Of a stretch of 64,000 nucleotides of DNA, positions 2,573-28,430 are shown piece after piece. The position numbers and the translations under genes are program-made. Source of the stretch: a virus (taxonomy: Duplodnaviria > Caudoviricetes); IMG/VR virus record IMGVR_UViG_3300021387_001758, positions 14,388-78,387 of that record. One strand, 5' to 3'. The notes below the pieces were generated by a model. That model was given only the letters and a program-made list of their open reading frames with translations, did no database searches and was not told the DNA's origin. How positions within the stretch are numbered: position 1 is the stretch's first letter; every line of letters begins with the position of its first letter.

Positions 2573-3287
2573 ATTTTAGAAGGCATAGGTTGAAAAAAAT
2601 ATCTTGTGGGGATAATAGGTTCAGATTTTTGTTTCGTGGAGATAATGTAGGGGCCGTTTTTCTCTAACGCTTTCCAAAACCTTCCTTTTCCTAAAATAAC
2701 CCCGGCCCTTCGAGCGATTGACTTTGTTAAATTTTTAACAACCTCTTCATCAATTCTCACTCAATTTTTCCGCAAGTTACTGTCGCCCAAAAGAACATAT
2801 GTTCTTTTTTCTATTGTCAAAAAATTTTTAGAATTTCGAAAGAATTCCTAAAAGGGGCCGGTCATTTTTTATTCACCCCTCTTCAATAAAAACCACCCCT
2901 CTTTTAGTCGAACAAAGGAGATCCTATTCTGCGGGCCAGGGTCGCGAAAAAGAACATATGTTCTTTTATTTAGTCCGGACTTTGTTAAATTTTTAACAAA
3001 GTCGTAGTCCGGACTTTGTTAAATTTTTAACAGGTGATCGTCTTATCTTTGGGACGTTTTAGTCCGGCCTTTGTTAAAAATTTAACAAAGTCCCGCGCGA
3101 GTTGGGGGGCCAAACACTTTAGCGCATTAAAGTAGTAAAGCGAACCTCTTCATTTTGTATTGTGTATACAGTATACAAGGACAAAAAAATAAATTAAAAA
3201 GATAATAAAAAAATAATAAAAAGGGGTTGACAAGTTATAGTATCCATGCTATTATATATATGTAAGAAAGAGAGAGGAGAAAAGGAA

Positions 3288-3698
3288 ATGACAAAGGCTT
3301 ACTACTTCGATATGGACGGCGTGCTCGCAAACTTCCATAAGGCATATAAAGAGGATAGAATGGTTGCTCTTAAGAGAGATAAGATGGCGAACCTTGAACC
3401 GTTCGAAGCAAACGTGAAACTCGTTCGCAACCTTATCGCACATAACGAAGTAGTATATGTACTCACTAAGGCAGCCAACGAAGAGGCGATGGAAGGCAAG
3501 ATTGAATGGCTTGCAAAGTACGTTCCTGAGATGGATAAAGAACACTTCATTTGCATCGTAGGTCATGGTAAGAAAGTTGACTTCATTCGTGAAGATGGCG
3601 TACTCGTTGATGATGATATGAAGAACCTTAAGCCGTGGGCAAAGGAAGGACACGAAGTATACTACGTAGAAGAAAAGGGAATGGAAGTAGTATTCTAA
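3288..3698 (+). CDS. HAD-superfamily phosphatase, 5'(3')-deoxyribonucleotidase-like
   Basis: YFDMDGVLANF motif I and LVDDD motif IV; start moved to the RBS-preceded ATG. Confidence 0.75.
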   Translation: MTKAYYFDMDGVLANFHKAYKEDRMVALKRDKMANLEPFEANVKLVRNLIAHNEVVYVLTKAANEEAMEGKIEWLAKYVPEMDKEHFICIVGHGKKVDFIREDGVLVDDDMKNLKPWAKEGHEVYYVEEKGMEVVF

Positions 3699-3873
3699 AG
3701 ATAGAAAGAGGGTAGATAAAAGGTTTACCCTCTTCATTTATAGATAGAAAATAGATAGATAAATAGACAGTGAAAAAAGTTTAACTAATTTGTAAAAAGG
3801 GGTTGACAGTACCTCTTCATTGTGGTATATTATAGTTAAGGAAAGGGAAGATAATTGAAAGGAAGGTAAACAA

Positions 3874-4050
3874 ATGAGGAATATAAACACTGAAAACATT
3901 ATTATAGCAATTACAATAATTGCGGCAATTATCGGAACAATCATTGGTATTATTGCAATCGTAAACGGACAGATAGTAGACAGTGAAACAGTTAGCCCCG
4001 CCAACCCAGCAAGTCCCGTTCATCAGTTAATGAAGAGTGTAATGTATTAA
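3874..4050 (+). CDS. Small membrane protein (58 aa)
   Basis: Manual ORF MRNINTENIIIAITIIAAIIGTIIGIIAIV..., RBS GGAAGG, own promoter and terminator. Confidence 0.65.
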   Translation: MRNINTENIIIAITIIAAIIGTIIGIIAIVNGQIVDSETVSPANPASPVHQLMKSVMY

Positions 4051-4308
4051 AGAAGTCGAAAGACTTCTTTTCATTTACCAAGGGACGAACATACGTTCGC
4101 ACCAAGCGAACATATGTTCGTCTACTGCGGGCGGCCGCGCGCACTTTAGCACGTTAAAGCATTAAAGCATTAGTATCGAGTTTGTTTGTTAATTAACAAA
4201 CGACATATTTATACATTGAAATGAATATTTATTTTTTTAATTTGAGGGTTGACAAATATATTCAGTTGTGGTATATTATAATTGACGAAAGGAAAGGAGA
4301 AAACACAA

Positions 4309-5052
4309 ATGACAAAACTAATATTCGATACTGAGACTACTGGACTGGATAAGCCGTTCTGTTACAATGTGGGCTATATCATTGTTAATGATGAGGGTAT
4401 GGTAGAGGTAAAGAAAGAGTATGTATGCGAGCAGGTATGGCATAATCCAATGCTATTTACTACTGCATACTATGCGAACAAAAGACCAATCTATGTTAAC
4501 AGAATGAGAGCAAGACAGATAACAATGAAGAAATTCGGTTATATCTGTCAAGAGATGATTAGAGATATTGAGCGCTATAATGTTACAATGGCTTTTGCTT
4601 TCAATAGCGACTTTGACGAGAAAGTGTTCGACTTCAATTGTGAATGGTTCAAATGTAATAATCCTTTTGATAATGTGGAAATTAAGGATATTAGAGGTTT
4701 CGTTCATCACTTCTTAATTGATAACGAGTTTAAAGCATTTTGCGAAGAACACGAACTGTTTACAGAATGTGGTAACTATTCCACCACAGCCGAAACAATG
4801 TATAGATATATAACTGATGATAATACTTTTGAGGAAGAGCACACGGCGTTAAGTGATAGCATTATTGAGTGGGAAGTATTGAAGAAATGTATTGAAAGGG
4901 GCGCTGATACTACAGAGAATTATAAAGCGTATCGCTCAATTAAAAGAGATACCGAAAAGGTATTAACAATTGATAATAAAGGCGATATATATACAATTCC
5001 TTGTAAAGAGTATAAAGTTTATAAAAGCAAAAATAAAATTGTAATTAAATAA
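4309..5052 (+). CDS. DEDDh (DnaQ-like) 3'-5' exonuclease
   Basis: FDTETTG, AFNSDFD and HTALSD motifs. Confidence 0.8.
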   Translation: MTKLIFDTETTGLDKPFCYNVGYIIVNDEGMVEVKKEYVCEQVWHNPMLFTTAYYANKRPIYVNRMRARQITMKKFGYICQEMIRDIERYNVTMAFAFNSDFDEKVFDFNCEWFKCNNPFDNVEIKDIRGFVHHFLIDNEFKAFCEEHELFTECGNYSTTAETMYRYITDDNTFEEEHTALSDSIIEWEVLKKCIERGADTTENYKAYRSIKRDTEKVLTIDNKGDIYTIPCKEYKVYKSKNKIVIK

Positions 5053-5148
5053 AAAAGTTTTGAAAAAGGGGTTGACAAACCCCTTTTTCCATGTTATTAT
5101 ATGTATGTAAGAAAGAGAGAGAGTTAAAAAAAGAAAGGAAGTAAAAAA

Positions 5149-5349
5149 ATGAAGTTCTTTAAGATGATGAAGGCGGCGGTAATGATTGGTAAAATGTTCA
5201 GCGATGAGGAAAAAATCAAAGAGTTAATCGACGAATACTTTGCCGAAACCGGATTAACAGTCACTGTTGAAGAGGTAAAGGCAAACGATTCAGAAAAAGT
5301 CGACTGGTTTGCGGAATGGGTTTCTGATAAGGTTATCGCACAACTTTAA
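5149..5349 (+). CDS. Hypothetical protein
   Basis: ORF with RBS and its own promoter. Confidence 0.65.
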   Translation: MKFFKMMKAAVMIGKMFSDEEKIKELIDEYFAETGLTVTVEEVKANDSEKVDWFAEWVSDKVIAQL

Positions 5350-5452
5350 AAAATAAAATAAAAAAATAAGCGAAAGGGGTTGACAAAACCCCTTTTGTAT
5401 TGTATTATAATTATAGAAAGAGAGAGGAAGAAAAGAAAGAGAGGTAAATAAA

Positions 5453-5611
5453 ATGACAAGAAAGATGGTAGAAGAAAGAATGAAATTCGTTGAAGAAAGA
5501 CTTTTCTATATCGCGATGGTAGATATGCCGACCGCAAGAGATAAAGAACTTGAAAGAGAATTTGAACACGAACTCAAAGGACTTAAAGAACAGATGAAGG
5601 CGTTCGGTTGA
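5453..5611 (+). CDS. Hypothetical protein (52 aa)
   Basis: Manual ORF MTRKMVEERMKF..., RBS GAGG. Confidence 0.6.
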   Translation: MTRKMVEERMKFVEERLFYIAMVDMPTARDKELEREFEHELKGLKEQMKAFG

Positions 5612-5841
5612 CGGACGCTTTTTTATGTCAACCAAAAGAACATATGTTCGTCCTGGCGCGGGCGCGTCCACTTTAGCACACTAAAGCGTTAAAGTGTAGA
5701 TCTTTCGGGCGCGCTTGTTAAAAATTTAACAAAGTTCCTCTTCAAAAAATTTTAAATTTTTTAAAATAAATACTTGACAAATAAATATATTTTATATATA
5801 ATATATATAGAAAGAGAAAGGTAAAAGAAAGGAAAATAAAA

Positions 5842-6285
5842 ATGACTAAAGCAATTTACTTCGATATGGATGGAACAATCGCTAACCTTTACGGAGTTGA
5901 AAATTGGTTAGATATGCTTATCAATGGAGACGAAACACCATACAGAGTGGCGAAACCGATGATAAAAATGAATGTACTTGCAAGGTACTTAAACAAGTTA
6001 CAGAGACATGGTTATATAATCGGAATTGTTAGTTGGTTGTCTAAAGGTGGAAACACAGAATATAATAAAAAAGTAACAGAAACAAAAATCAAATGGTTGC
6101 ATACTCACTTGAAAAGTGTTGAATGGAACGAAATAAAAATCGTTGAATACGGAACACCTAAAGAAACGATTGTAAACTATCCAAAAGGTATTCTGTTCGA
6201 TGATGAAAAACAGAATAGAAAAAATTGGAAAGGTAAAGCATATAAAGAAAATCAGATTATGGAAGTGTTGAAAGCGATTGCATAA
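5842..6285 (+). CDS. HAD-superfamily phosphatase (paralog of 3288-3698)
   Basis: YFDMDGTIANL and ILFDDE motifs. Confidence 0.75.
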   Translation: MTKAIYFDMDGTIANLYGVENWLDMLINGDETPYRVAKPMIKMNVLARYLNKLQRHGYIIGIVSWLSKGGNTEYNKKVTETKIKWLHTHLKSVEWNEIKIVEYGTPKETIVNYPKGILFDDEKQNRKNWKGKAYKENQIMEVLKAIA

Positions 6286-6370
6286 AATCGCTTTCAACCT
6301 TAAAAAAGGTATTGACAAGTTAAAAATTATATGCTATAATAAAAGCAGATAAAGGAAAGGGGAAAAGAAA

Positions 6371-6664
6371 ATGACACAGAGTATTATGCAGTTGGCGGAA
6401 TTATTAGACGAGTGGAATATTCCTTATGAATTAACTGACGATGTATGCGGAAACGAAAATAATCAGTTATGGTATCCTAACTATAAACATAATATTTGTG
6501 ATGTAATTTGTCACGAATACAGTTACGGCGGAAAAGATGGCTTACTTGAAATAATGGGTTTAGTCCCTGAAGAGGTCGGCGATGATGTAGAAGGGTATTT
6601 AACAGTTGCGGAAGTATTCCACAGAATTCTGCAGGACTATTGCGAAAATAAAGTAAAAAATTAA
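6371..6664 (+). CDS. Hypothetical protein
   Basis: ORF with RBS and promoter. Confidence 0.65.
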   Translation: MTQSIMQLAELLDEWNIPYELTDDVCGNENNQLWYPNYKHNICDVICHEYSYGGKDGLLEIMGLVPEEVGDDVEGYLTVAEVFHRILQDYCENKVKN

Positions 6665-6755
6665 AAAGTTTTTTTCTAAAAAGGGTTGACAAACCCTTTT
6701 TTTCATGTTATATTATATATGTAAGAAAGAGAGAGATAAAAGAAAGGAAAAGAAA

Positions 6756-6929
6756 ATGGCTTACGTAGAAATGTTCGATTATGTGCTTTCTGTAGAACAG
6801 TATGAACGCGAACGCGCGCAGTACCACGAAGAATGGTTAGCGATGGATGATTGGGACCGTTCATGGTATGATGATGAAGAGGAATTCATCGAAGACCGTT
6901 TCCATTCCGCTTGCTATCCGGATGACTAA
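6756..6929 (+). CDS. Small acidic hypothetical protein
   Basis: MAYVEMF... after RBS; D/E-rich. Confidence 0.6.
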   Translation: MAYVEMFDYVLSVEQYERERAQYHEEWLAMDDWDRSWYDDEEEFIEDRFHSACYPDD

Positions 6930-7227
6930 AGAAAAGAAAAGTAAGCCGCAAGGCTTATTTTTTTCTATCCATCAAAAGAACATATGTTCGGGCGCGGCCG
7001 GCCGCACTTTAGCGCATTAAAGTAATAAAGTGCGCGACTTTCGCCGTCGATTGTTAAATTTTTAACAATTGATCCTATATATATATTATAATTCTCTTCC
7101 CATTATATCATACCATACAAGAGAGATAATGTCAAGGGAAAAATTAAAAAAAATTTGTTAAATTTTCCCTTGACAGATTAAAAAACTCATGCTATAATAA
7201 AGACACAAAAGGAAAGGAGAGTAAAAA

Positions 7228-7464
7228 ATGAAAGCATTTGTTACGAAAGCAAACTCGGATTATTGGTACAAAATTAAAGAATTTGACACGATGGAAGATA
7301 TTGCAAAATTTATGAAAGAGGTTGAGTGCGGATTAATTATTGAAGAAAATGATTATACTGACGATGTACTTTTTGAATTTTGGGACGGAATGAAACAGGA
7401 AGACATTCCGATTATTAAAGAATGTGCTTTACATATCACTATTTACAATGATTATGTAGAATAA
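7228..7464 (+). CDS. Hypothetical protein
   Basis: ORF with GGAG RBS and promoter. Confidence 0.65.
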   Translation: MKAFVTKANSDYWYKIKEFDTMEDIAKFMKEVECGLIIEENDYTDDVLFEFWDGMKQEDIPIIKECALHITIYNDYVE

Positions 7465-7678
7465 AAATTCTGATAAAGAGAAAAGAGTTAGTCTTTACTA
7501 ACTCTTTTCTTTTGCGCGTCCCTCTTCAAAAAAAAACTTGACAAAATAAAAAAAATATGATATAATATATATAGAAAATAAAAAAGAAAAGAAAATTTGA
7601 AAAAAAATTAGAAAAAGGGTTGACAAACAAAATTTGAGTGGTATAATAATAGTAGAAAAAGAGAAAGGAGAAAAGAAA

Positions 7679-8035
7679 ATGGCTGTTAGTAGAAAAGTAG
7701 AAAGAGAACTTTTGAGAGAAGAGTATTTGAACAAACTGATTGAGTACTTTAAAGCCGATGAAGATGTTTTGAGAGTGAAAAGTAACGAAATCGCATTTCC
7801 TGTAGTTGGTTGTAACGATAGTGAGGATTTTATCGTAATTACAGTAAAAGTGCCTACGGGTGCAAACAAAGGTACAGAGCCTTACGATGGTTACGAACTT
7901 GCCGAAGAATACGAAATGAAGTTGAAAGAGAAAGAACAGAAAAAGAAAGAAAAGGCAATCGCAAAAGAAAAGAAAATCAAGCGTGACGAAGAAGTCAGAC
8001 GCAAGAAAAAGGAAATCGCCGAAAAAGGAAAATAA
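7679..8035 (+). CDS. MAVSRKVERE-family protein with lysine-rich C-terminal tail (paralog of 13361-13720)
   Basis: Clear sequence similarity to 13361-13720 (VLRVKSNEIAFPVVGC, KVPTGANKG.EPYDGYE.AEEYEMKLK). Confidence 0.75.
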   Translation: MAVSRKVERELLREEYLNKLIEYFKADEDVLRVKSNEIAFPVVGCNDSEDFIVITVKVPTGANKGTEPYDGYELAEEYEMKLKEKEQKKKEKAIAKEKKIKRDEEVRRKKKEIAEKGK

Positions 8036-8123
8036 AAAAAATAAAAAATAAAAGAGAAAAGGGGTTGACAAAATCCCTTTTTTCATATATAATATAATTG
8101 TAAAGAGAAAGGGGAAAGAAAAA

Positions 8124-8306
8124 ATGAAAAAGAAATACAGACTGAATAAAGTAAAATTTATCCGTTTTATCTGCTTTACAATTATGCTTTTAATCATCGG
8201 TTGGTTCATGGTTTCATACATTGAAATTCTTTGTAAGAATATCACAGAAAATCCGACTTACAGCGACTGGAATTTTATCTTTGTTGCACAAAAACTTTTG
8301 AAATAA
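8124..8306 (+). CDS. Small membrane protein
   Basis: Hydrophobic segment FICFTIMLLIIGWFMVSYI. Confidence 0.6.
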   Translation: MKKKYRLNKVKFIRFICFTIMLLIIGWFMVSYIEILCKNITENPTYSDWNFIFVAQKLLK

Positions 8307-9159
8307 TCACCTTTTACCTCCTTTTTTACAATATATGGAAAAGGTCACCACTGAGTGGTGACTTTTTCCGCTCTTCAAAAAGAACATATGTTCGCCTCCG
8401 GCGCCGGACCGGAGATTGTTAAAAAATTAACAATTTCGGCACCGCGCACTTTAACGCTTTAACGTGGTAAAGTGTACGCAGACGGGCGCGCCCGCTTTAG
8501 CGCGCTAAAGTGGTAAAGGATTGTACTAAATAAAAAACATTAAAAAAGGTATTGACATTTAGGGCGGGCGGGTGTATACTATAATTGTTCCAAGGGAGGG
8601 ACAAACGAAAATAAAAAAAATAAAAAAAGTTTGAAAAATCCCTTGACAAATCAAAGCCAATGTGCTAATATATACTTGAGGGTAGGAGAGTTAAGGGTTT
8701 ACCTCACTACAAAGTAGCAAGCAGTCGCAAGTACAAGCACTACCGAAAAAACCCGAAAAAAGTTTAAAAAAAGTGTTGACAAACTAAAGCAAATGTGCTA
8801 ATATATAATCAAGGAAAGGGAGATACTTCTGAGACTGTTCCCCAATACCGAAAGGCAAGAGAACTGTGAGCCAAATAAAATTTGTAGCCGCATAGGAAGT
8901 ATCACCCGAAATCCTAAAAAAATCTAAAAAAGGTATTGACAAACTTGAAAAAGTATGTTAATATATAAATGTCAAGAGGGTCGTGGAGAGGTCGCCCCAC
9001 GAAGTAGCGTAAGAGGATAACACACAGACCTAAATCGATAAGTGAAAACCTCTTGACAATATTACAAAAGTGTGATAATATATAATCACAGAGAGGGAGA
9101 CAGGAACTCCCAAAGGTAACTAAAAAGGGTCACGACCAACGTGAGAAAGTAGGTACACT

Positions 9160-9501
9160 ATGACTAACAGAGAATTCTTCGAAATGGTAATGAATGGTAA
9201 CGTAACTGACGAGGTTAAGGCTCACGCTGAAATGTCGATTGAGAAACTCGATGCGCGCAACGCAAAGAGAGCATCTCAGCCGTCAAAGAGAGCGATTGAG
9301 AACGAACCTATCAAGGCTAACATCAGAGAGTATCTCGCTGATAAAGAGCCGACTACGGCAAGCGAAATTGCCAAGGGACTTGAACTGACTGTTCAGAAAG
9401 TTTCCGCACTGTGTAGACAGATGGTAAATGATGGTATTCTCACCGTTACCGAGGTTAAGGTAAAGGGAAAGGGCAATCAGAAAGCGTATGCTATCGGTTG
9501 A
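9160..9501 (+). CDS. Winged-helix DNA-binding protein, paralog 1 of 3
   Basis: TASEIAKGLELTVQKVSALCRQMV wHTH-like segment; similar to 12643 and 14729. Confidence 0.7.
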   Translation: MTNREFFEMVMNGNVTDEVKAHAEMSIEKLDARNAKRASQPSKRAIENEPIKANIREYLADKEPTTASEIAKGLELTVQKVSALCRQMVNDGILTVTEVKVKGKGNQKAYAIG

Positions 9502-9794
9502 CAATAATTCCCAGCCGGGAAGAGAGAGAAAATCTCTCTCTTCCTTTTTTTACCATTCCGCGGTTAACAATAACAGGTATTATGTCAACCGCGACAATAA
9601 TAATATTATTGTCAACCGGCCAAAAATCTTTATCCACAGATTGTTAAATTTTTAACAGGGCGGCCGGCCGCGCGCACTTTAGCGAGTTAAAGCGTTAAAG
9701 GATCGAGCCAAAAAAATAATTGGAAAAAAGTACTTGACAAGTCCTCTTCATTATGGTAATATATACTTGTAAGAAGGAGAAAGGAGAAATAAAA

Positions 9795-9986
9795 ATGACT
9801 TGTACTGAATGGAATAAAGGGATTAAGTTCCTCACTACTGCAGAGGTAGGCGCGTGGGTTGACCACGAAGACCGCACAGTTATTATCGAGGAGATGTGCG
9901 GAGGCAGATATTTACTCCTCGACCGCAAAGAAGTTTGCGGGGTGACCGATTCGGTCATCGAGGCGATGTCATTCCTTAGGGGATAG
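9795..9986 (+). CDS. Hypothetical protein
   Basis: ORF after GGAG RBS. Confidence 0.55.
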   Translation: MTCTEWNKGIKFLTTAEVGAWVDHEDRTVIIEEMCGGRYLLLDRKEVCGVTDSVIEAMSFLRG

Positions 9987-10140
9987 GCAACCGCCTTTTT
10001 TATTAACCAATGAACGAACGTTCGCGCGGCCGGCCGCGCGCACTTTAGTCTGCTAAAGCATTAAAGGATCGAAAAAAAGTACTTGACAAATCCTCTTCAT
10101 TATGGTAATATATGGGTAGAAAGAGAAAAGGAGATAAAAA

Positions 10141-10314
10141 ATGAAAGTGATTTTTGCAGGGTATCTTATTGTAGTCTTTTCCCTTGGCGTTCATGGGATT
10201 TTTTATGATAAAACCGATAAAAACGGAAATTTTAAAGTAAATTGGCCTTTTGGTTTATTTCTTTTCTTGTTTGGACTTACTCCCATAATTGCGAAAATAT
10301 GTAATTTAATTTGA
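10141..10314 (+). CDS. Small two-TM membrane protein
   Basis: Manual ORF MKVIFAGYLIVVFSLGVHGIF..., GGAG RBS. Confidence 0.55.
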   Translation: MKVIFAGYLIVVFSLGVHGIFYDKTDKNGNFKVNWPFGLFLFLFGLTPIIAKICNLI

Positions 10315-10383
10315 AATTGCACTTGACAAGTCCTCTTCATTGTGATATACTTATTATAGAAAGAAAGGAAAGGAGAAAGGAAA

Positions 10384-10551
10384 ATGAAAACGTACTTATT
10401 TGAAGATTTTGAAACGGGTGAGAGATTCTTTGTTGAAGAGGAAACACCGGAAAAGGCAATTGCAGTTGCCGATGAATATTTTGACCACGCTATTTTCATG
10501 TGGGAAGTATCCGAAGAATGGGCGGACTTGGCAGGATTTGACACTTACTAA
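10384..10551 (+). CDS. Small acidic hypothetical protein
   Basis: Manual ORF MKTYLFEDFETGE..., RBS. Confidence 0.6.
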   Translation: MKTYLFEDFETGERFFVEEETPEKAIAVADEYFDHAIFMWEVSEEWADLAGFDTY

Positions 10552-10655
10552 AAAAAATTAAAAAAGTTTTGAAAAAGGGTTGACAAGTTCAACCCTTTAT
10601 GGTAATATATAATCGTAAGGAAGAGAGAGTTAAAAAAAAGAGAAAGGAAAAAGAA

Positions 10656-10847
10656 ATGATGTACTTAGTAATTTTTATCGAAGAATACGTTGGCTACCAC
10701 TTTGACGAACACACCAAGTTTTTCAAGGATGAACAGTCGGCAAAGGAATATTGCCAGAAATTAAACGCCGAATTTGCCGAAGAAAATCATTGTTCGGTTG
10801 AAGATTTAGGTGACTACTACACGGTTGAGTGGGTTAAGGAAGGTTAG
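10656..10847 (+). CDS. Hypothetical protein
   Basis: ORF after RBS. Confidence 0.6.
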   Translation: MMYLVIFIEEYVGYHFDEHTKFFKDEQSAKEYCQKLNAEFAEENHCSVEDLGDYYTVEWVKEG

Positions 10848-11085
10848 AAAGGACTAACCCACCAAAAAGAGGGCAACCTCTTTTTTTTTGTTCTGCCGGC
10901 GAACATACGTTCTCGGCGGCCGCCCTCGCGCACTTTAGCGTAGTAAAGTGGTAAAGTGGACGGATCCGGCGCCCGCGCATAAACATACATGAAAATGTAT
11001 AAATATTTTTTTCAAAAAAGTATTGACAAAATTGATTATATATATTATACTATAATGGGGAAGTATGCCCAGGCGTAAAAGTGCG

Positions 11086-11109
11086 AATTTTCTGAATTGT
11101 CAGAAAATT
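11086..11109. promoter_or_regulatory. Tandem overlapping CodY boxes
   Basis: AATTTTCTGAATTGTCAGAAAATT = two AATTTTCWGAAAATT matches overlapping by 6 bp, 20 bp upstream of a -35. Confidence 0.7.
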
Positions 11110-11199
11110 AAAACTTTTTATTTTGGGGTTGACAAATTCCGTTCTATCCCTTATAATAGTAACTGTAAGGTAAAGAGAAAAGGAAAGGAACGAAACAAC

Positions 11200-11865
11200 A
11201 TGAAAATCGACAAAAGAAAAAACTATTATCTGACAATCGACACGGAAACGGCAAACGGATTTGATGACCCGATTGTATACGATTTAGGCGGATGTATACA
11301 TGACAAGAAAGGCAACGTAATGGAAACATTTTCCTTTATCATTTACGAAACCTTTTGCGGAATGAAAGATTTAATGCAGAGTGCCTACTACTCCGAAAAA
11401 ATTCCGATGTATCAGAAAGAAATTGACGAGGGAAAAAGAAAAATCGTAACCTATACCACCGCCAAAAGATATATCAATGCACTTTGTAAAAAGTACAATG
11501 TCAAGGCAATAATCGCCCACAATATGAGATTTGATTATAGGGCAACGACACGGACGCAAAGATATATCACGAAATCAAAAGTCAGATTTTTTCTTCCGTA
11601 TGGCGTTGAATTGTGGGATACAATGAAAATGGCAAATGATACAATTTGCAAACAGAAAACATATATCAAGTGGTGTAAAGAAAACGGATATATGACAAAG
11701 AACGGACAAGTCAGAAAAACGGCGGAAATCCTTTACAAGTACATTTCAGGCAACTGGGATTTTGTGGAAAATCATACAGGACTTGAAGATGTGCTAATCG
11801 AAAAGGAAATCTTTTCCAAGTGTATGGCACAACATAAGCCGATGAGAAAATTATGTTTTGACTAA
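11200..11865 (+). CDS. DEDDh 3'-5' exonuclease (paralog of 4309-5052)
   Basis: IDTETANG, AHNMRFD and HTGLEDV motifs. Confidence 0.8.
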   Translation: MKIDKRKNYYLTIDTETANGFDDPIVYDLGGCIHDKKGNVMETFSFIIYETFCGMKDLMQSAYYSEKIPMYQKEIDEGKRKIVTYTTAKRYINALCKKYNVKAIIAHNMRFDYRATTRTQRYITKSKVRFFLPYGVELWDTMKMANDTICKQKTYIKWCKENGYMTKNGQVRKTAEILYKYISGNWDFVENHTGLEDVLIEKEIFSKCMAQHKPMRKLCFD

Positions 11866-11948
11866 AAAAATTCTAAAAAAGGGGTTGACAAAGTCAGCCC
11901 CTTTTGGTATTATAATTATAGAAAGAGAGAGAAAGAAAGGTAAGAAAA

Positions 11949-12101
11949 ATGTATATGGTATGGGTATTTGATGAAGATTTATATGATGATGTGTTGATTT
12001 TTGAAGGGTCATATGAACAGTGCCAAGAGGTAGTAGCCGAAGGGCGCGCAATCGGTGAGGACCCGTATATCGTAGCCAGCGAGGACTACTACGAGGACTA
12101 A
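11949..12101 (+). CDS. Small acidic hypothetical protein
   Basis: Manual ORF MYMVWVFDEDLYDD... Confidence 0.55.
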   Translation: MYMVWVFDEDLYDDVLIFEGSYEQCQEVVAEGRAIGEDPYIVASEDYYED

Positions 12102-12642
12102 GCCGAAAAGGATAAGCCGAAAGGCTTATCTTTTTTTTTGTTCTTAAAAAGAACATATGTTCGCGGCGGGCCGGTGGCGCGCACTTTAGTCTGCTAAAGC
12201 GTTAAAGCGATCCGCGCCGCTTGTTAAAAATTTAACAATCGATCCGGTCCGCCGATTGTTAAAAAATTAACAAAGATTTTTTTCAAAAAGGGGTTGACTT
12301 TTTCCCTATGTGGGTATATACTATAATTGTCAAGGGGAGAGGAAGCCGAGGGACTCACGAGGGCGCGCACTCCACGAGAGAAGGAAAAAAATTCTCGAAA
12401 AAAAATAAAAAAACCCCTTGACACTATCACAAAAATGTGATAATATATAATTGACCCAAGGGGAGAGGTTAAAAACGAAAGTAGTAAAATATTACAACCC
12501 CGCGGGTGAAAAAAAGTTTTAAAAAGTACTTGACAAGATAGACAAAAGGTGCTATACTTAAGTCAAGGAAAGGGGAAAGACAGGAACTTTCCCAAAGGTA
12601 AATCTAAAAAGGGTTGTGACCAACACAAGAAAGAGGTGTCTT

Positions 12643-12987
12643 ATGACAAAGAGAGAATTCATGGAAATGGTTATCGCTGAGGTTACTAACGCAGAACTCA
12701 AGGCTTTTGCCCAGTCTGAAATCGAAAAGATGGACGCGCGCAACGCTAAGAGAGCCGAAACGCCTTCCAAGACGGCAATCGCTAACGAGCCTATCAAGGC
12801 ACAGATTGTCGAATTCCTGAAGGGTTGCGAGGAAAAGGTTACCGCTTCCGCTATCGCTTCCGAGGTTGAAATCTCAACGCAGAAGGCTTCCGCCCTTTGC
12901 AGACAGTTGGTAGCAGATGGTGTTCTGACCGTCGCAGATGTGAAGGTTAAGGGCAAGGGTACACAGAAGGGTTACGAAATCGCGTAG
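12643..12987 (+). CDS. Winged-helix DNA-binding protein, paralog 2 of 3
   Basis: TASAIASEVEISTQKASALCRQLV. Confidence 0.7.
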   Translation: MTKREFMEMVIAEVTNAELKAFAQSEIEKMDARNAKRAETPSKTAIANEPIKAQIVEFLKGCEEKVTASAIASEVEISTQKASALCRQLVADGVLTVADVKVKGKGTQKGYEIA

Positions 12988-13360
12988 CCTAACCCAAGCC
13001 GAGGAAGGGAAAAATTTTCCCTTCCTTTTTTTACCATTCAGACGAACATATGTTCGTGGCAGAAATTGGAAGAACATATGTTCGCGAACATACGTTCGCG
13101 GTCGATCTGGTCCGGACTTTGTTAAAAATTTAACAATCGGGGCCGGCGCCGCGCACTTTAACACACTAAAGTGCTAAAGTCTTTCGATCCGGCGCGCGGT
13201 TTACATAATATTATTATCGTTATGCGGTGCGGTTTACATAATATTATTATCGTTACGAAAAAATCCGAAAAAAATTTTTGAAAAAGGGTTGACAAATTGT
13301 GTTCTATCCCTTATACTATATATAGAAAGTAAGAGTTGAGGTTAAGGAAAGGAGTTAACT

Positions 13361-13720
13361 ATGGCAGTATCGCGCAAGGTAGAAAGAGAAATCATCCGCA
13401 AACAGTATCTCGAAATGGTAGCCGAATTCCTCAAGGAAAAGGGTGAAGATGTTCTCCGTGTTAAGTCCAACGAAATCGCTTTTCCAGTCGTTGGATGTGA
13501 AGATAGCGAAGATTTTCTCGTTATCACTTTCAAGGTGCCGACTGGCGCCAATAAGGGAATGGAACCGTATGACGGTTACGAAATGGCGGAAGAGTACGAA
13601 ATGAAACTCAAAGCCAAAGAGGAAAAGGCGAAAGCCAACGCCGAAAAAAAGGCGAAGAAAATCGCTCGCGACAAAGAAATCAGAGCGAAAAAGGCAGAAA
13701 TTGCCAACAAGGGAAAATAG
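13361..13720 (+). CDS. MAVSRKVERE-family protein (paralog of 7679-8035)
   Basis: Sequence similarity; GGAG RBS. Confidence 0.75.
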   Translation: MAVSRKVEREIIRKQYLEMVAEFLKEKGEDVLRVKSNEIAFPVVGCEDSEDFLVITFKVPTGANKGMEPYDGYEMAEEYEMKLKAKEEKAKANAEKKAKKIARDKEIRAKKAEIANKGK

Positions 13721-14035
13721 CCATTTTCTTCCAGAGGGAAGAGGGTCGGTTGACCCTCTTCTTTTATTGTAAACCGCGCAACAATAATAATATTATGTCA
13801 ACCACGAACATATGTTCGCGGCAGCCGAATTTCAAAGGCGAACATATGTTCGCGGCCGGCCGTAGTTGTCCACTTTAACACACTAAAGCGATAAAGTGCG
13901 CGCCGGCGGGCGTCCACTTTAACACGTTAAAGTAGTGAAGTGCAGAAATCCGGGCCGCTCGTTAAATTTTTAACAAAGTCAAGTTTTCTGGCAACTATTC
14001 CGAAAATTAGTTTTTTAGGAATAGTTACAACCTCT

Positions 14036-14083
14036 TCACTATATATAGTATATTTCCCTCTTCAATACCACTATATATAGTAT
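14036..14083. promoter_or_regulatory. Tandem NrdR-box pair
   Basis: CACTATATATAGTA at 14037 and 14069 (32-bp period). Confidence 0.65.
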
Positions 14084-14219
14084 GTTTTGGTCGTGCCAAC
14101 TATTCCGAAAAAATGCTTTATCGGCATAGTTATACCGCCGAATTGTCAGAATATTCCAACTATTCAGAATTGTCAGAATATTCCAGCTTTTCGCTTTAGC
14201 GTACTAAAGCGTTAAAGCG

Positions 14220-14465
14220 TTGTCAAATTTTAAAATTTTTCCAGGAGCTGCGAAAGAGCTGCGATCGAAAATTTTTTTCACGGCCGTGGGGAGCTGCGAT
14301 TTGACTTTTTTATTTCGCATCCAGGAGCTGCAAAAAATTTGACTTTAAAAGTCAAATTTCTTTTATAAAATTCAAGGAGCTGCGCTTTGGAAATTTGACA
14401 AAAAAAGTCAAATTTTTAAGGAGCTGCAACTTAGAGCTTTTGGGAATTTGACTTTAAAAGTCAAA
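14220..14465. repeat. Alternating GGAGCTGC direct repeats and TTTGAC-N7-GTCAAA palindromes
   Basis: GGAGCTGC at 14244, 14290, 14324, 14376, 14420; palindromes at 14338, 14394, 14447 (also 15195). Confidence 0.9.
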
Positions 14466-14728
14466 TTTTCAGCGCGCACCCGCACGAACCTCTTCAAATT
14501 AAAATTTGAAAAAGCTCTAAAAATCTTTTATAATATATATAGAAAGTGAGGGAAGAAAAAAATAAAAAGCTCCTCCGCTGAAGAGGAAAGGGCAAAAGAA
14601 ATTTTGACAAATCCTCAAAAATCTTATATAATATATATGTAAGATGAAGAGAGGGAAAAGTAACTTCCTTCTAAAGTAAAAACCATAACGTAACTGGGTG
14701 GTGACCTACACCAGAAAGAGAGTACAAA

Positions 14729-15070
14729 ATGACTAAGAGAGAAATGATGAACCTGATCGCTAACGGAACTATCAATGAAGAGGTTATGGCTTGGGCTGTC
14801 GGCCAGATCGAGAAGATGGATGCGGCTAACGAGAAGCGCAGAAACTCCGTTTCTAAGAAAGCGCTTGAGAACGCTCCGATCATCGACAGAATCGTGAACG
14901 AGATCCTCGGTGAGGAACCGATGACTGCTACTGATGTAGCTGGAGTTCTCGGAGTTTCTGTCCAGAAAGCATCTGCACTCCTGCGCACTGCCGTGAAGGA
15001 AGGTAGAGCTGCTGCCGAGGACGTGAAAGTTAAGGGCAAAGGCACTCAGAAGGGGTACACTCTCGCGTAG
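14729..15070 (+). CDS. Winged-helix DNA-binding protein, paralog 3 of 3
   Basis: TATDVAGVLGVSVQKASALLRTAV. Confidence 0.7.
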   Translation: MTKREMMNLIANGTINEEVMAWAVGQIEKMDAANEKRRNSVSKKALENAPIIDRIVNEILGEEPMTATDVAGVLGVSVQKASALLRTAVKEGRAAAEDVKVKGKGTQKGYTLA

Positions 15071-15119: not shown

Positions 15120-16290
15120 CTTTTTATTTTATACGTATACTTAGACGTATTAGAATACGTTTGAGTATTATTTTTTTAACTTTTAATAGGAAAATTTGAC
15201 TTTTTAAGTCAAATTATTAATAATTTTAAACTTTTTTAAAGAAAAAATTTGATTTTAGTCGATGTGTGCGGCACCCACCTATTTCTGACCATACCAACTT
15301 CTTTCATAATCCTCCAACTCCTTTCAAAACCCCTCAACTTCTTTCAAAAACACGCAACTTCTTTCATTTTCCCCTTCTGAACTACCCCCTTCTCCGAGAT
15401 CTACTGCGCAGGACCACCGCCCTCCCATGCCCCGTGGCAGTCTACCTCCCTATAACGTATTACTAAACTTCTACTTATACGTAAACTTATACGTAACAAC
15501 CCGTTACCAGCTGGGTTATCCTTAGTCGTATACGTATACTTATACGTAGACTTATACGTTTTACCGTTACCCTTTTCCTACCTTTTTCGTTACCCTTTTC
15601 CTTATCCGTTTACTTATCCTTTTTTGTTACCTTTTCCGGTACATTTCCCGTTATCCTTTTTCGTAAACCCTTTCCCGGTACCTTAAACATATACGTATAC
15701 GTATACGTTTATCGTATTCGTTTTCGTAGAGGTAGAAAATAAAAAAGCTCCTTCCGCTAGAGGAAGAAGCTAAGTTAATCGTAGTAGTTGACCGTTACGG
15801 CTCCCTTGTTTTTCCCCACCGTTGGTGGTAAAACCTGCGGGAGCTTCACAACTAGTAGAAGGTTTTTAGATTTGAGGTACCTTAATATTATACGTTTATA
15901 CGTATAAGTATATGTATACGTATATTTATATTTTTTCCTTATACGTATAATAAGTGATTTTAGTTAAAAGAAGCTACAATTTTTTTCGTAAAACTGCGCG
16001 AGTCCGAAATTTTTCTGCAAAATTTTTTGGAAAATTTCTGCAAAATTTTTTGGAAAATTTTTTGGAAAATTTCTGACGCTGGAAATTTTTTGGAAAAAAT
16101 TTTTTTGGAAAATTTTTTGGAAAATTTTAAGCCAGGGAAATTTTTTGGAAAATTATTTTCCCAAAATTTTTCCCAAAATTATTGATATACGTAGACTGCG
16201 CGCTGTCAAAAACCTACTGATTTTCCCAAAATTTTTTGGAGAATTTTTTGGAAAATTTTTGATTGCGCGCAGTCGAAATAAAAAAGGAAG
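15120..16290. repeat. Non-coding repeat island between convergent gene blocks
   Basis: Blocks of CAACTYCTTTCA, TATACGTA, GTTACCCTTTT-like and TTTGGAAAATTT repeats; central hairpins at about 15735-15850. Confidence 0.85.
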
Positions 16291-24340: not shown

Positions 24341-24415
24341 TGGCGGGAAGGATAGGACTCGAACCTACAACCTCGTGCTTAACAGGCACTTGCTCCACCA
24401 TTGAGCTACCAACCC
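24341..24415 (-). tRNA. tRNA-Asn(GTT)
   Basis: Cloverleaf, loop CTGTTAA, CCA. Confidence 0.92.
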
Positions 24416-24425
24416 ACGCTCAAGT

Positions 24426-24566
24426 CTATTCAGACTGCGCGCCTTCAAGATTTCTAATCTGTCTCTTCAGTTTCCTCACTACACCAGAACTCTCACCGTT
24501 CTTTCCGTTCGACTGAAGAAGATGCAGCCTATGTTTAAGACCTTCAATAGATTTTCCCTTTGCCAT
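24426..24566 (-). CDS. Small basic protein (46 aa)
   Basis: Manual ORF MAKGKSIEGLKHRLHLLQ..., AAGGAG RBS. Confidence 0.6.
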   Translation of the reverse strand: MAKGKSIEGLKHRLHLLQSNGKNGESSGVVRKLKRQIRNLEGAQSE

Positions 24567-24614
24567 AAAATAAACTCCTTTCTTAAAGAGCAAACACCCT
24601 TTAATAAATATATA

Positions 24615-25200
24615 ATTAAGAGTCTTTCAACTTACTAACTACTAACGCCACTATATTTGACTAATGGGGAGACATACCCAAGCAATAAGGAGCGACCCTA
24701 TTACTATATGCCCCGCTTGCGCCAAGCCCATAGAGGACTGATTACCTCTACCTTTCAGGTGATATTCGGCAATTTTTTAGAAAAGCAATCTCTCTATCTT
24801 CCTTGCTTCATACCAAATAAATTAATATGCTTGAGTCTTCGCAGATTTACCCTACTCGGAGTTGACATACAAACGGTTATACACAGATTTCTCTGCTTCA
24901 ACTGCAAAACGAATTATTGGCATTTCTTAGGTTTGCCCCTGGGCAGCCAACCCAAAACCTAACTAAGATTCGGCGTTTGCTATTAACAAGCGCTTCTATT
25001 ATTTCGCCCGTTCGTATTCTGTCTTTAGCTCACGTTAGCAGTAGCGCTACACCTTTGGTTTCGGCTTCCAACCTACACGATAGTCGTCACCGCCTATCGC
25101 ACAGCCCCTTAACGAGTATCCCCGTTTCTATGGACTGACCGCCCTTTCGGGTTGTTTCGGTGTACCTCAGCACTGCAATCAGCAACTCTTCACTGAGTTC
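24615..25200 (-). ncRNA. Candidate large structured ncRNA (about 580 nt; ROOL/GOLLD-like context)
   Basis: No credible ORF; several GNRA-capped hairpins; sigmaA promoter upstream; lies within the tRNA array. Confidence 0.55.
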
Positions 25201-25423
25201 TTATTTATATATTTATTAAAGAGTGTTTCTCCTTTCTTTACCTTATATAAATATTATACCGAAAATTTGGATTTTCGTCAAATTTTCAGAAATATTTTTC
25301 TCTAAAAATTTTATCTTGTTTAAAGGCTTTTGTTTATCGGTACGCCACAAGAGCCTTAACTCCCGCCACTACCCTACGTTTACCGTACAGACCCTCTCAA
25401 GCGAGCGCCAGTTAGTGGATTGA

Positions 25424-25498
25424 TGGCTACGGCGGCTGGGTTCGAACCAGCGAATGACGGAGTCAAAGTCCGTTGTGTTACCACTTCACCACGCCGCA
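25424..25498 (-). tRNA. tRNA-Gln(TTG)
   Basis: Cloverleaf, loop CTTTGAC. Confidence 0.92.
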
Positions 25499-25643
25499 AT
25501 ATAAGTGGCATATTTTCCCCATATGCCGGAAGGGCGAGTTTAACGGCCCTCGCGCCGCCTATTGATTATGCCCTCAACAGGATAAGAGCTGTGGTGCGCC
25601 TGACTGGAGTCGAACCAGCACGATCTCACAATCGAGGGATTTT

Positions 25644-26381
25644 CCTGCTACTCCATGTTGCCATGGCCGCGTCACCGCGTTGTAGTCTGGACTTTCTCTT
25701 CACCATGCGTTAATACGTTTAGGTGCGCGCCGTCAAGTCTCTACACGTTCCTCATTTGAGGCTTCGCTCGGGATTGTCCACGTGGGAGTTTCCCCGAATT
25801 TGACGCGATTCACATGGGAGTTTCCAACCCAAGTGCTCTATTTTATATTTTTGGTTTTATATGTATCAGTAAAATAATGACAATTAGGACAAAGTATTTC
25901 GAGATTATCTAAATGATTATTATTTTTATTGCCATCTTTATGATGTAACTCTAATGGAATAGGATTACCCAACCACTCAGTCAAGCCACAACGGCAACAT
26001 TTTTTCTCGAAAAATCCTTCGGCAAATAATCTATTTCTTAGTTTAAAAGAAGTAATTGCTTGTTCATTATTCAAATATTTTTCTATTGGAGTTCGATATT
26101 TTCCAATATTTTTTGTGTGTGCTTGACCAGTAAAATGAGAAGTATCAAAATTATATTTCTCACACATCTCTTTTATAGTCTTAATAGCAGAACCACCATC
26201 TGGATTATATCCTACTTTATTAGCTAACTCTCTAAAAGATTCACTCTCAGCACACATTACTGATAACTGTTCAACAGTAAATTTTTCATACTTTTTCATA
26301 CCTTTTCTCCTCTTATCTCTCTACTTATAAGTAGAAAAAAGGCAGACTAAATATAAAAAATTAAACCAAACCTATATCGAA
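25644..26381 (-). mobile_element. Group I intron (738 nt) with HNH ORF in the 5' (P1-loop) region
   Basis: AAATTCGGGGAA, AATCCCGAG, GTAGAGACT and AAGAGAAAGTCC core elements all downstream of the ORF; terminal G. Confidence 0.88.
25838..26299 (-). CDS. Intron-encoded HNH homing endonuclease
   Basis: CCRC...LELHHKDGNKNNN...LCPNCH. Confidence 0.85.
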   Translation of the reverse strand: MKKYEKFTVEQLSVMCAESESFRELANKVGYNPDGGSAIKTIKEMCEKYNFDTSHFTGQAHTKNIGKYRTPIEKYLNNEQAITSFKLRNRLFAEGFFEKKCCRCGLTEWLGNPIPLELHHKDGNKNNNHLDNLEILCPNCHYFTDTYKTKNIK

Positions 26382-26422
26382 AAGTCCCTTGCGTCTGCCT
26401 ATTCCGCCACAAGCGCGCAGTT

Positions 26423-26671
26423 CTATTCATCAAAGAACTTCCAAATCGGATTCACAAAATCATAATCCCGATTAGAAACTCTATAATTGCCAAACAACTT
26501 TACCAACTCGTCAAGCGTTCCACCGATTTTCAAATAATCTTTCATGGCTTCAAAAGCCTTACTCTGCGCGGCGATCTTATTCTTTTCCTTGTCTTTGAAC
26601 TGCTTTTCTGCAGCAAGGCAATCCTCAACTGTATCGTACTTCTTTCCGGTAATTTCACTTACAACATACAT
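26423..26671 (-). CDS. Hypothetical protein (82 aa)
   Basis: MYVVSEITGKKY... after GAGGAG RBS. Confidence 0.65.
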   Translation of the reverse strand: MYVVSEITGKKYDTVEDCLAAEKQFKDKEKNKIAAQSKAFEAMKDYLKIGGTLDELVKLFGNYRVSNRDYDFVNPIWKFFDE

Positions 26672-26705
26672 ATTGGTTTTCTCCTCACTAACAAGACAAT
26701 AATAC

Positions 26706-26786
26706 TGGTGGAGTCGATGGGAATCGAACCCATGTCCGAAACACTGCACTTTGGCCTTGATGCCCCGTCGAAACCATTCCGACCCC
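26706..26786 (-). ncRNA. ssrA: Miniature tmRNA: tRNA-like domain only (81 nt)
   Basis: 5' GGGGTCGGAATGGTTTCGACGGGG and 3' TTTCGGACATGGGTTCGATTCCCATCGACTCCACCA; G3:U70 pair; short loop in place of the mRNA-like domain. Confidence 0.8.
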
Positions 26787-26844
26787 ATAGAAGAAGGAGC
26801 TGAACGCTCCTTTCTTATATACCATATAGACAATGGTACGTAGG

Positions 26845-27265
26845 TGGTGAAACCTAAGAAATAAAAAATGGTTTAATTCTGATTCCGTAAGGTGGGTCGC
26901 AGTATCCTTCTGCGACTAAACCAATAGGTTACTTTGCCTTCTTATTTGGTCAAGGTGCGTTTGCCACAAGGCCACATATCAATCAATGAAAGCATAGTCG
27001 AACTAACTAAATCTTATGAGACAATTGCCGGTGGTAGTTTACCTATTAAAATCCATGTTAACGCATCTGCTACTGACCATCTGAGTAGCGCAGGGCTTGA
27101 CTTACATCGGCTCAAGCATACCTTGGAGAATTTAAGAACTAATCCTCAACCGCAATTCTCCTTACGATTACGTTCCGTCCGTAGACAACGCTTAGCCAGA
27201 TTAGTAATTTGCTGAATTTATATCGTTAGTCAGCGACTCCGTACACGTTTAGGGTCGAGTAAAGA
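26845..27265 (-). ncRNA. Candidate structured ncRNA block (about 420 nt)
   Basis: No credible ORF; hairpins GCTTGA/TCAAGC, GCTACT/AGTAGC, GTCGCAG/CTGCGAC. Confidence 0.4.
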
Positions 27266-27269
27266 CCAA

Positions 27270-27344
27270 TGGTTGCGGAAGTAGGATTCGAACCTACGAC
27301 TTTTAGGTTATGAGCCTAAATTGCTACCGCTGCATCATTCCGCC
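27270..27344 (-). tRNA. tRNA-Met(CAT), 1:72 mismatch (initiator-like)
   Basis: Loop CTCATAA; G1:A72 mismatch. Confidence 0.85.
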
Positions 27345-27349
27345 ATAAA

Positions 27350-27735
27350 GGAACTTTGGACGCATCCTTAGTTCCTAGGCTTACTCCGAAGAGATAGGCC
27401 TCTATTCTTCATTTGCTACAACTTCGAGTTCGTTCCACGGATCCTTTCTCTATATTTCCGAAATTCTTGTGGTGATCAAATCCACGGTGAGTATTGTTGT
27501 ATCGCATCCGTCCCTTTCGGAGACGCGACCTGTTGCTTCAGGCGACTCTCTCATAGACATTGTTCCGGAACTGCCTATGTTGGATTGTTGTATTTTATTG
27601 CAAACGCACTCCCACTTTACTCAAGGCTTGTGACTTGCACGGCCTAAACCTCTGTTTAAGCTTGATGGCGTGGTTACGTTTAGCATCGAGAGGGGAGAAA
27701 AGGAAAGGAAGTAAGATTTATCTCCCCTCTCTTAA
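27350..27735 (-). ncRNA. Candidate structured ncRNA block (about 380 nt)
   Basis: Follows a TTGACA-N17-TATAAT promoter; 5' hairpin GAGAGGGGAG/CTCCCCTCTC; GNRA hairpin GTCTCC-GAAA-GGGAC. Confidence 0.4.
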
Positions 27736-27786
27736 CTTTCTATATATATTATAGCAAAGTTTTATAATTTTGTCAAAATTTCTTTC

Positions 27787-28017
27787 TTAGAGTGCGGCCC
27801 ACTCATTACAAGCATCATATCTATCGTCAGCTTGATCTTCCCAAGCGAACCGAATTCTCGCGCGAAGGTCTTCAATGTCCTGTGCGAGTTCACCGATGAT
27901 CCATTCATCATCTTCATCTCCACGACCCCTTGCATCCTCAAGTGCAAACTCGAACTCTTCTTCCTTCATTTCAAGTTCCTTCTGGAGCATTATCGGATCT
28001 TCATAGTCTCTATACAT
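27787..28017 (-). CDS. Small acidic hypothetical protein
   Basis: ORF with AGAAGG RBS. Confidence 0.6.
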   Translation of the reverse strand: MYRDYEDPIMLQKELEMKEEEFEFALEDARGRGDEDDEWIIGELAQDIEDLRARIRFAWEDQADDRYDACNEWAAL

Positions 28018-28210
28018 TTATAACCTTCTTTCTTAGTTTAATTTTGAGAGTTGAACGCGGCGTCTCGTTCGGATTAGTGGGAATTGAACCCTTGGCTCTT
28101 ACCTACCATAAGTTTTTAACTTCGAGCCTTCTCTTACTTTTTCCTCTCTCTTAACTTTCTATATATATTATATAAGAAAATTATAAATATTTCAAATTAT
28201 TTTTTATAAA

Positions 28211-28421: not shown

Positions 28422-28430
28422 ATATAAGTT

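Follow-up and report, generated by a model that had tools for sequence, protein, structure and literature searches.

The E. coli datA locus is a cluster of sites that titrates DnaA. Bacterial decoy clusters of this kind, such as the decoy sites for response regulators, control no promoter and lower the pool of free regulator (PMC8599769). Phages are known to use proteins to take over their hosts, and a few have promoters of their own at which a single host regulator is read. The virulent Brevundimonas phage Delta and other pili- and flagellotropic phages carry an intergenic region dense in CtrA sites, associated with 'lytic deferment', an arrangement that has evolved repeatedly (PMC9437464). 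Here we analyzed a 451-bp intergenic island at positions 13770-14220 of a 64-kb stretch of DNA from a large gut or rumen phage (bases 14388-78387 of the 78,387-bp virus record IMGVR_UViG_3300021387_001758; hereafter the window). The island contains two LexA boxes, three HisR operators, one Rex box, two NrdR-like boxes, two dif-like recombination sites and a weak CodY-like repeat present twice. Together with the other early spacers of the genome it may form an array on which host proteins dock and which serves as a sink for them, a reading that we favor on sequence grounds while holding it at somewhat less than an even chance.

The original prediction described the island as an operator cluster free of promoters and genes, with five motif types and a decoy function. 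Each listed element was located at the coordinates given for it (TAAAG motifs at 13873, 13917 and 14194, the Rex box at 13959, the NrdR boxes at 14037 and 14069, and so on); we counted at least six types, however, and two of the CodY-like assignments changed. The element at 13994 lies instead inside a 34-bp palindrome (13993-14026) with a second, half-degenerate copy at 14098-14131, and the one at 14159 matches the CodY box with 5 mismatches. The named sites cover 260 of the 451 bases (58%), with 9-20 bp between neighboring sites. The spacers are GC-rich in the first third of the island; three island spacers have a GC content of 72%, 94% and 69%, compared with 36% for the genome. As judged from the matches described below, it is almost certain that host proteins recognize the boxes as genuine sites, and these proteins are probably captured or exploited by the phage DNA.

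To estimate how often such sites arise by chance we used dinucleotide shuffles of the window, none of which matched the observed counts. There were 14 LexA matches (at most 2 mismatches) against 0.26 expected, 19 HisR-pattern matches at 14 sites (at most 2 mismatches) against 0.63 expected, and 12 Rex matches (at most 1 mismatch) against 0.15 expected. Nearly all of them fall inside a 12-kb early block (window 2700-14700) whose small genes have near-consensus sigma-A promoters. The island is one of ~11 extended spacers in this block; the other early spacers hold ~40 further host-type sites. Most of these spacers follow a largely fixed order of terminator, LexA box, GC-rich spacer, HisR box, Rex box, A-rich tract and promoter, and across them the site cores are invariant while the flanks vary. 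A search at the same stringency of four Clostridia genomes (1.5-3.2 Mb; members of the same class, not a confirmed host) in which this type of dif site is present gave 4-10 LexA, 2-17 HisR and 0-2 Rex matches, approximately equal to the reversed-pattern controls and with no perfect match among them. By this search, consensus-grade sites for LexA, HisR and Rex are more numerous in the phage genome than in such a chromosome.

Every LexA, HisR and Rex site of the early block has a terminator before it and the next promoter after it, and none lies over a core promoter. The LexA copies all directly follow terminators and, unlike the boxes at repressed genes, never overlap a start site or the -35 or -10 of a promoter. 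The nearest sites are centered at approximately -64 to -85, and the distances from sites to promoters vary. Within the island no forward promoter match scored above 9/12. The first forward promoters past it are found at 14506 (11/12), where the original prediction had expected a promoter-like element at about 14505, and at 14604 (12/12), at least 285 bp downstream. The claim that the island lacks promoters thus stands for the forward strand, but one reverse match (14099..14070, TTGGCA-18-TATAGT, 10/12) shares bases with NrdR box 2 and with the left arm of the second dif-like site, with no open reading frame (ORF) after it. Absence of genes was borne out, since the only frames are 38-46 codons long, mostly with TTG or GTG starts; these small ORFs were rejected because none has a Shine-Dalgarno sequence. 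An Rfam search found no RNA family in the island, which, from its position after a terminator, is probably untranscribed. The island is therefore a cluster of predicted high-affinity sites that controls no promoter, the property by which decoy loci are recognized. Since the sites are consensus grade and off promoters, since no homologues of LexA, TrpR/HisR, Rex or NrdR were found in the 78-kb record (~66% complete), and since the counts exceed those of the Clostridia genomes, classical repression in cis is unlikely, as had been proposed from the distance alone, and titration is physically plausible.

A different use of the same sites in cis also has to be considered. The bound repressors could serve as roadblocks behind leaky terminators or could occlude UP elements, so that the early cassettes and the winged-helix gene downstream of the island follow the SOS, histidine, redox and dNTP status of the host. 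Phage phi29 with its Spo0A boxes (PMC2731898) and the CtrA-site arrays of phages of Alphaproteobacteria (PMC9437464) are precedents for such sensing. The location of the sites right behind terminators in a fixed order would suit it, as would some spacers with only 16-41 bp between the end of the last site and the -35, and the island precedes the putative regulator gene in all relatives. However, 0 of the ~40 sites lie over a -35, a -10 or a start, where repressors act in host genes (HisR boxes lie inside host promoters); the gap between island and nearest promoter is large, and promoter distances are not fixed. Moreover, all of these proteins bind in healthy cells, so that a lytic phage would be silenced when its host is most productive, and the identity of the boxes is not kept at orthologous positions. 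We consider sensing in cis quite unlikely.

The TAAAG motif (CTTTA-N6-TAAAG-N3-TAAAG in the island) is, by sequence and gene context, the operator of the histidine repressor HisR (YerC/YecD, TrpR family), because it matches the published consensus and has the genes of the published regulon downstream. This consensus, cacTTTAnnnnnnTAAAgtg, is a 20-bp palindrome, and R. gnavus HisR bound its own operator in vitro in a histidine-dependent manner (PMC9413887). We scanned one genome per species (185,579 species) with the pattern CACTTTA-N6-TAAAG-N3-TAAAG and obtained at least 120 loci. Among the matches listed, most were Bacillota from animal guts, and in the bacterial loci the motif occupied the -35/-10 spacer or directly followed TATAAT. 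The 83 downstream ORFs called in these matches included roughly 40 (about half) resembling family-3 amino-acid ABC binding lipoproteins, ~10 hisZ genes and one YerC/YecD TrpR-like candidate hisR; NCBIfam confirmed three, four and one of these, respectively. The hisZ gene is the first of the his operon. The third TAAAG half-site, 8 bp on, was also present in the bacterial operators picked by the scan pattern.

The remaining boxes could likewise be compared with characterized consensus sequences. The LexA boxes (CGAAC-N4-GTTCG) conform to the Firmicute consensus throughout, CGAACATATGTTCG being the Bacillus-type LexA consensus that was also obtained by DAP-seq of a clostridial LexA (PMC8457756). 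The clostridial Rex consensus is TTGTTAANNNNTTAACAA (TTGTTAA-N4-TTAACAA; PMC9600882), to which nine perfect copies were found elsewhere in the early block in addition to the island copy with its single mismatch. A perfect palindrome that resembles the Rex box minus its 4-bp spacer, TTTGTTAATTAACAAA, occurs at window 4184-4199 and at 2040, 5939 and 10387 of the relative L006. The NrdR-like boxes (CACTATATATAGTA) have the canonical tandem spacing of 31-32 bp (PMC2892513). A box of this type follows the -10 of an nrdD-like ORF of Clostridium algifaecis, an ORF judged by eye from its N-terminal residues; this was the only clear case in a pattern search of five genomes, which otherwise gave mostly chance-level matches. 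There is no nrd gene or forward promoter near the island NrdR boxes. The CodY-like repeat AATTGTCAGAATATT differs from the CodY box AATTTTCWGAAAATT at the same 2 positions in both copies; 17 such matches occur genome-wide, many of them in an unrelated repeat, and the core is kept in relatives. Readings of the 34-bp palindrome and of other repeats as PurR, ArgR, sigma-54, Fur or CtrS/HrcA sites were dropped since the spacing or the arms did not fit. A direct repeat of GCGGTTTACATAATATTATTATCGTTA at window 13188-13260, present twice, contains a 6-3-6 palindrome (ATAATA/TATTAT) that is Fur-family-like with the wrong spacing.

The 34-bp palindrome, AACTATTCC-N16-GGAATAGTT, is likely to be a dif site of the XerS type, as indicated by its sequence and neighbors. 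A metagenome scan with this palindrome returned at least 120 loci. In five bacterial loci among the matches listed (L204, L245, L290, L231 and, from a genome, L294) the site lies directly beside a XerS-like tyrosine recombinase gene, and in 10 further bacterial loci it lies 2-6 kb from one, on contigs with a LexA-controlled LysM (yneA-like) gene, ruvX, ireB and alaS as neighbors; in the rest, the sequence around the site contained no such recombinase gene. The best NCBIfam hit of the neighboring recombinases was NF003462 (XerS) at 132-186 bits, below the 267-bit cut-off, with near full-length alignment in three of four. The palindrome was single-copy in 6/6 bacterial genomes that carry it, and a reversed-pattern control of the exact search returned 0. 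The phage arm shares TTCCGAAAA with the left arm of difSL (TTTCCGAAAA), a site that adjoins xerS (PMC5357621) and that the 13-8-13 arrangement of the palindrome also resembles. The same palindrome was found ~0.3-1.1 kb from a large-terminase gene in six unrelated-looking metagenome loci listed (L215, L261, L264, L272, L280 and L284), possibly further phages or prophages that exploit the dif of their host; the large terminase of L264, the one scanned, bears an intein.

The presence of this pair raises the possibility that the island is primarily a Xer recombination locus. The dif-like sites would then be the core, serving either multimer resolution as in the plasmid sites cer and psi or as an attP for insertion at the host dif as in IMEX, and the repressor boxes would shape or gate the synapse; this is compatible with a sink in the other spacers. 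In cer and psi the host proteins ArgR/ArcA and PepA serve as accessory proteins. The pair occurs at a single locus of the phage genome, is kept almost base for base, degenerate arm included, in the relative L158, and recurs in 25 phage-like metagenome loci (matches listed), in which boxes flank it tightly and often symmetrically. The single-copy occurrence in bacteria, the XerS-like neighbors, the shared difSL arm and the six terminase-linked loci all fit, and a search of the record found no integrase domain, as expected of an element that borrows the host Xer machinery. On the other hand, no integrated copy or att junction was present in the loci fetched, the gene content (sigma factor, topoisomerase II, 21 tRNAs) suggests a virulent phage, and the central regions of the two sites differ. 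The type of the flanking box varies among relatives, NrdR boxes being absent in L158, and ten other spacers have the same repressor boxes and no dif site. We regard recombination as the primary role of the island as unlikely, though it deserves serious weight.

Comparison with relatives separated the parts of the island that are kept in place from those that turn over. LexA and HisR arrays were found in seven IMG/VR contigs, one of them with the same 44-bp HisR phasing. The closest winged-helix orthologue, that of L158, has 73% amino-acid identity and a homologous intergenic region. Conserved in the alignment are the two dif-like sites with the CodY-like core, the first of the LexA boxes, the GGAGCTGC repeats, the palindrome TTTGA-N9-TCAAA and the promoters. 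In place of the HisR, Rex and NrdR boxes, L158 has more LexA boxes and other palindromes. One palindrome, TGTATACAGTATACA, is common to the first early spacer (window 3157-3176) and the L158 island (~1598-1612 and ~1842-1856). In the 25 phage-like loci the dif-like site is usually paired, with the copies 73-75 or 103-105 bp apart and NrdR boxes or a TTGAAATTTCAA palindrome between them. LexA, HisR or cre-like boxes flank the pair, for example as cre-dif-dif-cre or HisR-dif-NrdR-dif-HisR, and synteny with both flanking genes is retained in at least 7-10 of the 25 loci. Symmetrical bracketing by the cre/LacI-family-type palindrome CGAAAACGTTTTCG was seen in L207, L213, L202, L269 and L239 (matches listed); this palindrome adds a further host-type box to the relatives' repertoire. 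The exchange of boxes suggests that any strong host site suffices, which fits a sink better than precise control in cis. Since the conserved core is the tandem dif-like pair, around which the repressor boxes turn over, the island is a mixed element and not the cleanest test case for a decoy, although the original prediction had called it the best one.

Downstream of the island, the conserved intergenic region continues with lineage-specific repeats. The palindrome TTTGAC-N7-GTCAAA was tried as a host operator and rejected, as it gave 4 hits in 301 Clostridia genomes and 4 in the control; it and the GGAGCTGC repeats are probably operators of a phage protein. A further reading is that all the repeats, the island boxes included, are something other than functional host sites, either operators of phage proteins, such as the three winged-helix paralogues, or linkers for cassette shuffling like the PeSL of T4-type phages. 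The presence of the three paralogues and of these two lineage-specific repeats would be in line with this, the module order suggests duplication, and compact junctions elsewhere in the early block are hairpins with a -35 in the loop, as in PeSL (at 5062-5089, 5370-5398 and 6678-6701 a terminator hairpin has the TTGACA of the next promoter in its loop). However, exact matches to four host consensus motifs that were defined independently and to a single-copy host recombination site make coincidence very unlikely. In addition, the site cores are kept and the flanks are not, the opposite of what homology-driven shuffling needs, and searches of the record turned up no homologue of the cognate proteins. 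We therefore consider it highly improbable that the island boxes are not host sites in function.

The sink is favored because the sites are of maximal strength, numerous, placed between terminator and promoter and interchangeable, and because the repressors are DNA-bound in a healthy cell and govern regulons that would be useful to a phage. Under this reading the island would be a non-coding platform of high-affinity sites acting via occupancy rather than promoter block, because the sites lie where bound proteins are unable to obstruct one. In an undamaged, well-fed cell LexA would be bound to DNA, as would HisR when histidine is present, Rex when NADH is low and NrdR with dATP/ATP, and the incoming and multiplying phage DNA would pull them off the chromosome. 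The resulting de-repression of the SOS, histidine, ribonucleotide-reductase and fermentation regulons would supply the phage, and the dif-like pair would additionally recruit the host recombinase. Binding and titration by the sites are deduced here from their sequence and placement, and a decoy role is plausible. The earlier proposal holds in part: the sites are consensus-grade, host-type and off promoters, but the island proved to be part of a larger conserved intergenic region.

Several points weigh against the sink. LexA is autoregulated, and so is HisR in approximately half of genomes, so that titration would be buffered. De-repression would be pointless if the phage shuts off host transcription, and effects in cis on the use of UP elements are possible in several other spacers, in which the promoter-proximal site ends 16-41 bp before the -35. 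The part of the island that is conserved in place is the dif pair with the CodY-like repeat, not the repressor boxes. The four Clostridia genomes used for comparison are of the same class only, and with the record ~66% complete a phage-encoded binder could sit in the missing third. In its broadest form the idea would extend to a family of large gut and rumen phages whose early non-coding DNA is a multiplexed sponge for LexA, HisR, Rex, NrdR and others, switching on the host repair, amino-acid, dNTP and fermentation regulons without a protein effector; in the island, docking sites around a borrowed dif would let host physiology gate the action of the recombinase on the phage genome. This broad form is speculative, and we think it less likely to be right than wrong.

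Table. Coordinates of the features in and around the island (window numbering)
Feature	Position	Strand	Basis or remark
Upstream early gene, 119 aa, no Pfam family	13361..13720	+	Orthologue beside the same island in at least 10 relatives
Intrinsic terminator of gene 13361..13720, GC-rich hairpin then T-run	13733..13768	+	Read from sequence; missed by a simple terminator scan
LexA (SOS) box 1, CGAACATATGTTCG	13805..13818		14/14 to consensus
LexA box 2, same sequence as box 1, 34 bp downstream	13839..13852		14/14 to consensus
HisR operator 1, CACTTTA-N6-TAAAG plus third TAAAG half-site 8 bp on	13871..13898	+	Motif match
HisR operator 2, 44 bp after operator 1	13915..13942	+	Same 44-bp phasing in relative L005
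Clostridial-type Rex box, TCGTTAA-N4-TTAACAA (TCGTTAAATTTTTAACAA)	13959..13976		One mismatch
dif-like site 1, 13-8-13 palindrome AACTATTCCGAAA / ATTAGTTT / TTTAGGAATAGTT, probable XerS type	13993..14026	+	Sequence and genomic context
NrdR-like boxes (two) in tandem, between the dif-like sites	14036-14051, 14068-14083		32 bp start-to-start
dif-like site 2, left arm same, right arm degenerate (TATCGGCATAGTT)	14098..14131	+	Degenerate arm base-for-base in relative L158
Direct repeat (two copies) with AATTGTCAGAATATT (14141, 14168), CodY-like	14140..14192	+	2 mismatches; AATTGTCAGAAT core beside dif pair in relatives
HisR operator 3	14192..14219	+	Motif match
Lineage-specific repeats outside the island: GGAGCTGC (five); TTTGAC-N7-GTCAAA (three; 14338, 14394, 14447)	14244..14465	+	Repeat search
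Two tandem sigma-A promoters	14506-14534 (11/12), 14604-14632 (12/12)	+	Consensus score
Winged-helix-like early gene, 113 aa, one of three paralogues	14729..15070	+	Orthologues in 21 IMG/VR loci

The island forms the distal half of a conserved ~1-kb intergenic region (13721-14728) upstream of the winged-helix gene, and the proximal half consists of the lineage-specific repeats and the two promoters (Table). Each winged-helix paralogue is preceded by tandem near-consensus promoters, five (8552-9081), three (12294-12558) and two (14506-14632) in number, at intervals of 90-160 bp; the intervening segments are richer in GC and could encode small RNAs. GC-rich spacers, up to 94% GC and often palindromic (GCGCGGCCGGCCGCGC), also separate the AT-rich sites at 13853-13958 and in other early spacers (e.g. 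10024-10041); their composition is kept and their sequence is not, and their function may be to exclude RNA polymerase and nucleoid proteins. Just beyond the early block, at 16022-16257, nine copies of a 15-bp unit (ATTTTTTGGAAAATT, partner ATTTTTCCCAAAATT) lie within ~240 bp; the units resemble iterons and may mark a replication origin.

The record is linear according to IMG/VR and ~66% complete according to CheckV, while relatives in IMG/VR and metagenomes measure 115-135 kb. It encodes a sigma factor, both topoisomerase II subunits, a DNA ligase, a helicase, tail proteins and endolysins. On the minus strand it carries the 21 tRNA genes (window 24341-29989), a ROOL RNA (24602-25221; 306 bits) and a minimal tmRNA-like gene of 81 nt (26706-26786) that matches only the tRNA-like ends of the model. 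No isolated phage was a close DNA relative, the sole match being 65 bp to a repeat of a Staphylococcus phage.

If the proposed reading is correct, an off-promoter array for five or six host proteins, whose sites outnumber those of a whole chromosome, would constitute a DNA-level device for takeover or sensing. The sequence of a phage alone could then reveal the identity and physiology of its host, and Xer/dif biology would be connected with large tailed phages. The reading can be tested on a 450-bp fragment. Our literature searches found no description of decoy or titration arrays in phages, and the nearest systems each share some of the properties of the island. The CtrA phages differ in that one factor is involved, its sites are at promoters and regulation of phage genes was shown (PMC9437464), whereas here at least five host proteins are predicted to be concerned, off promoters and in 11 spacers. 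The Spo0A boxes of phi29 and Nf (PMC2731898) and the co-option of LexA by temperate phages (GIL01, CTX, 186 and others; reviewed in PMC9437464) are alike in that phage DNA reads host regulators that it does not encode, but these cases involve few sites and a single factor each, overlapping and repressing early promoters or origins. The untranslated repeat region at the injection stop of the virulent phage T5, with 8 DnaA boxes (bioRxiv 10.1101/866236), is similarly early, first-entering and conserved, with palindromes, host-protein boxes and a non-promoter role; it has DnaA boxes only, with no repressor operators and no dif, and was proposed to act as membrane tether and injection stop. Bacterial decoy clusters, in contrast to the island, are chromosomal, bind one factor and serve the homeostasis of the cell itself rather than a virus. 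The dif-like sites resemble XerS/difSL and the Xer-exploiting elements (IMEX, cer/psi; PMC5357621) in their inverted arms, the TTCCGAAAA left arm, the single copy in bacteria, the XerS-like neighbor and the integrase-less carrier, but they are 34 bp long with longer arms than the 31-bp difSL, form a tandem pair and reside in a virulent-looking phage of ~120 kb, and the recombinases beside the bacterial copies score below the XerS cut-off. In none of these systems do many host factors, a location away from promoters and a dif pair occur together, and we regard the island as a variant of host-factor co-option by phages.

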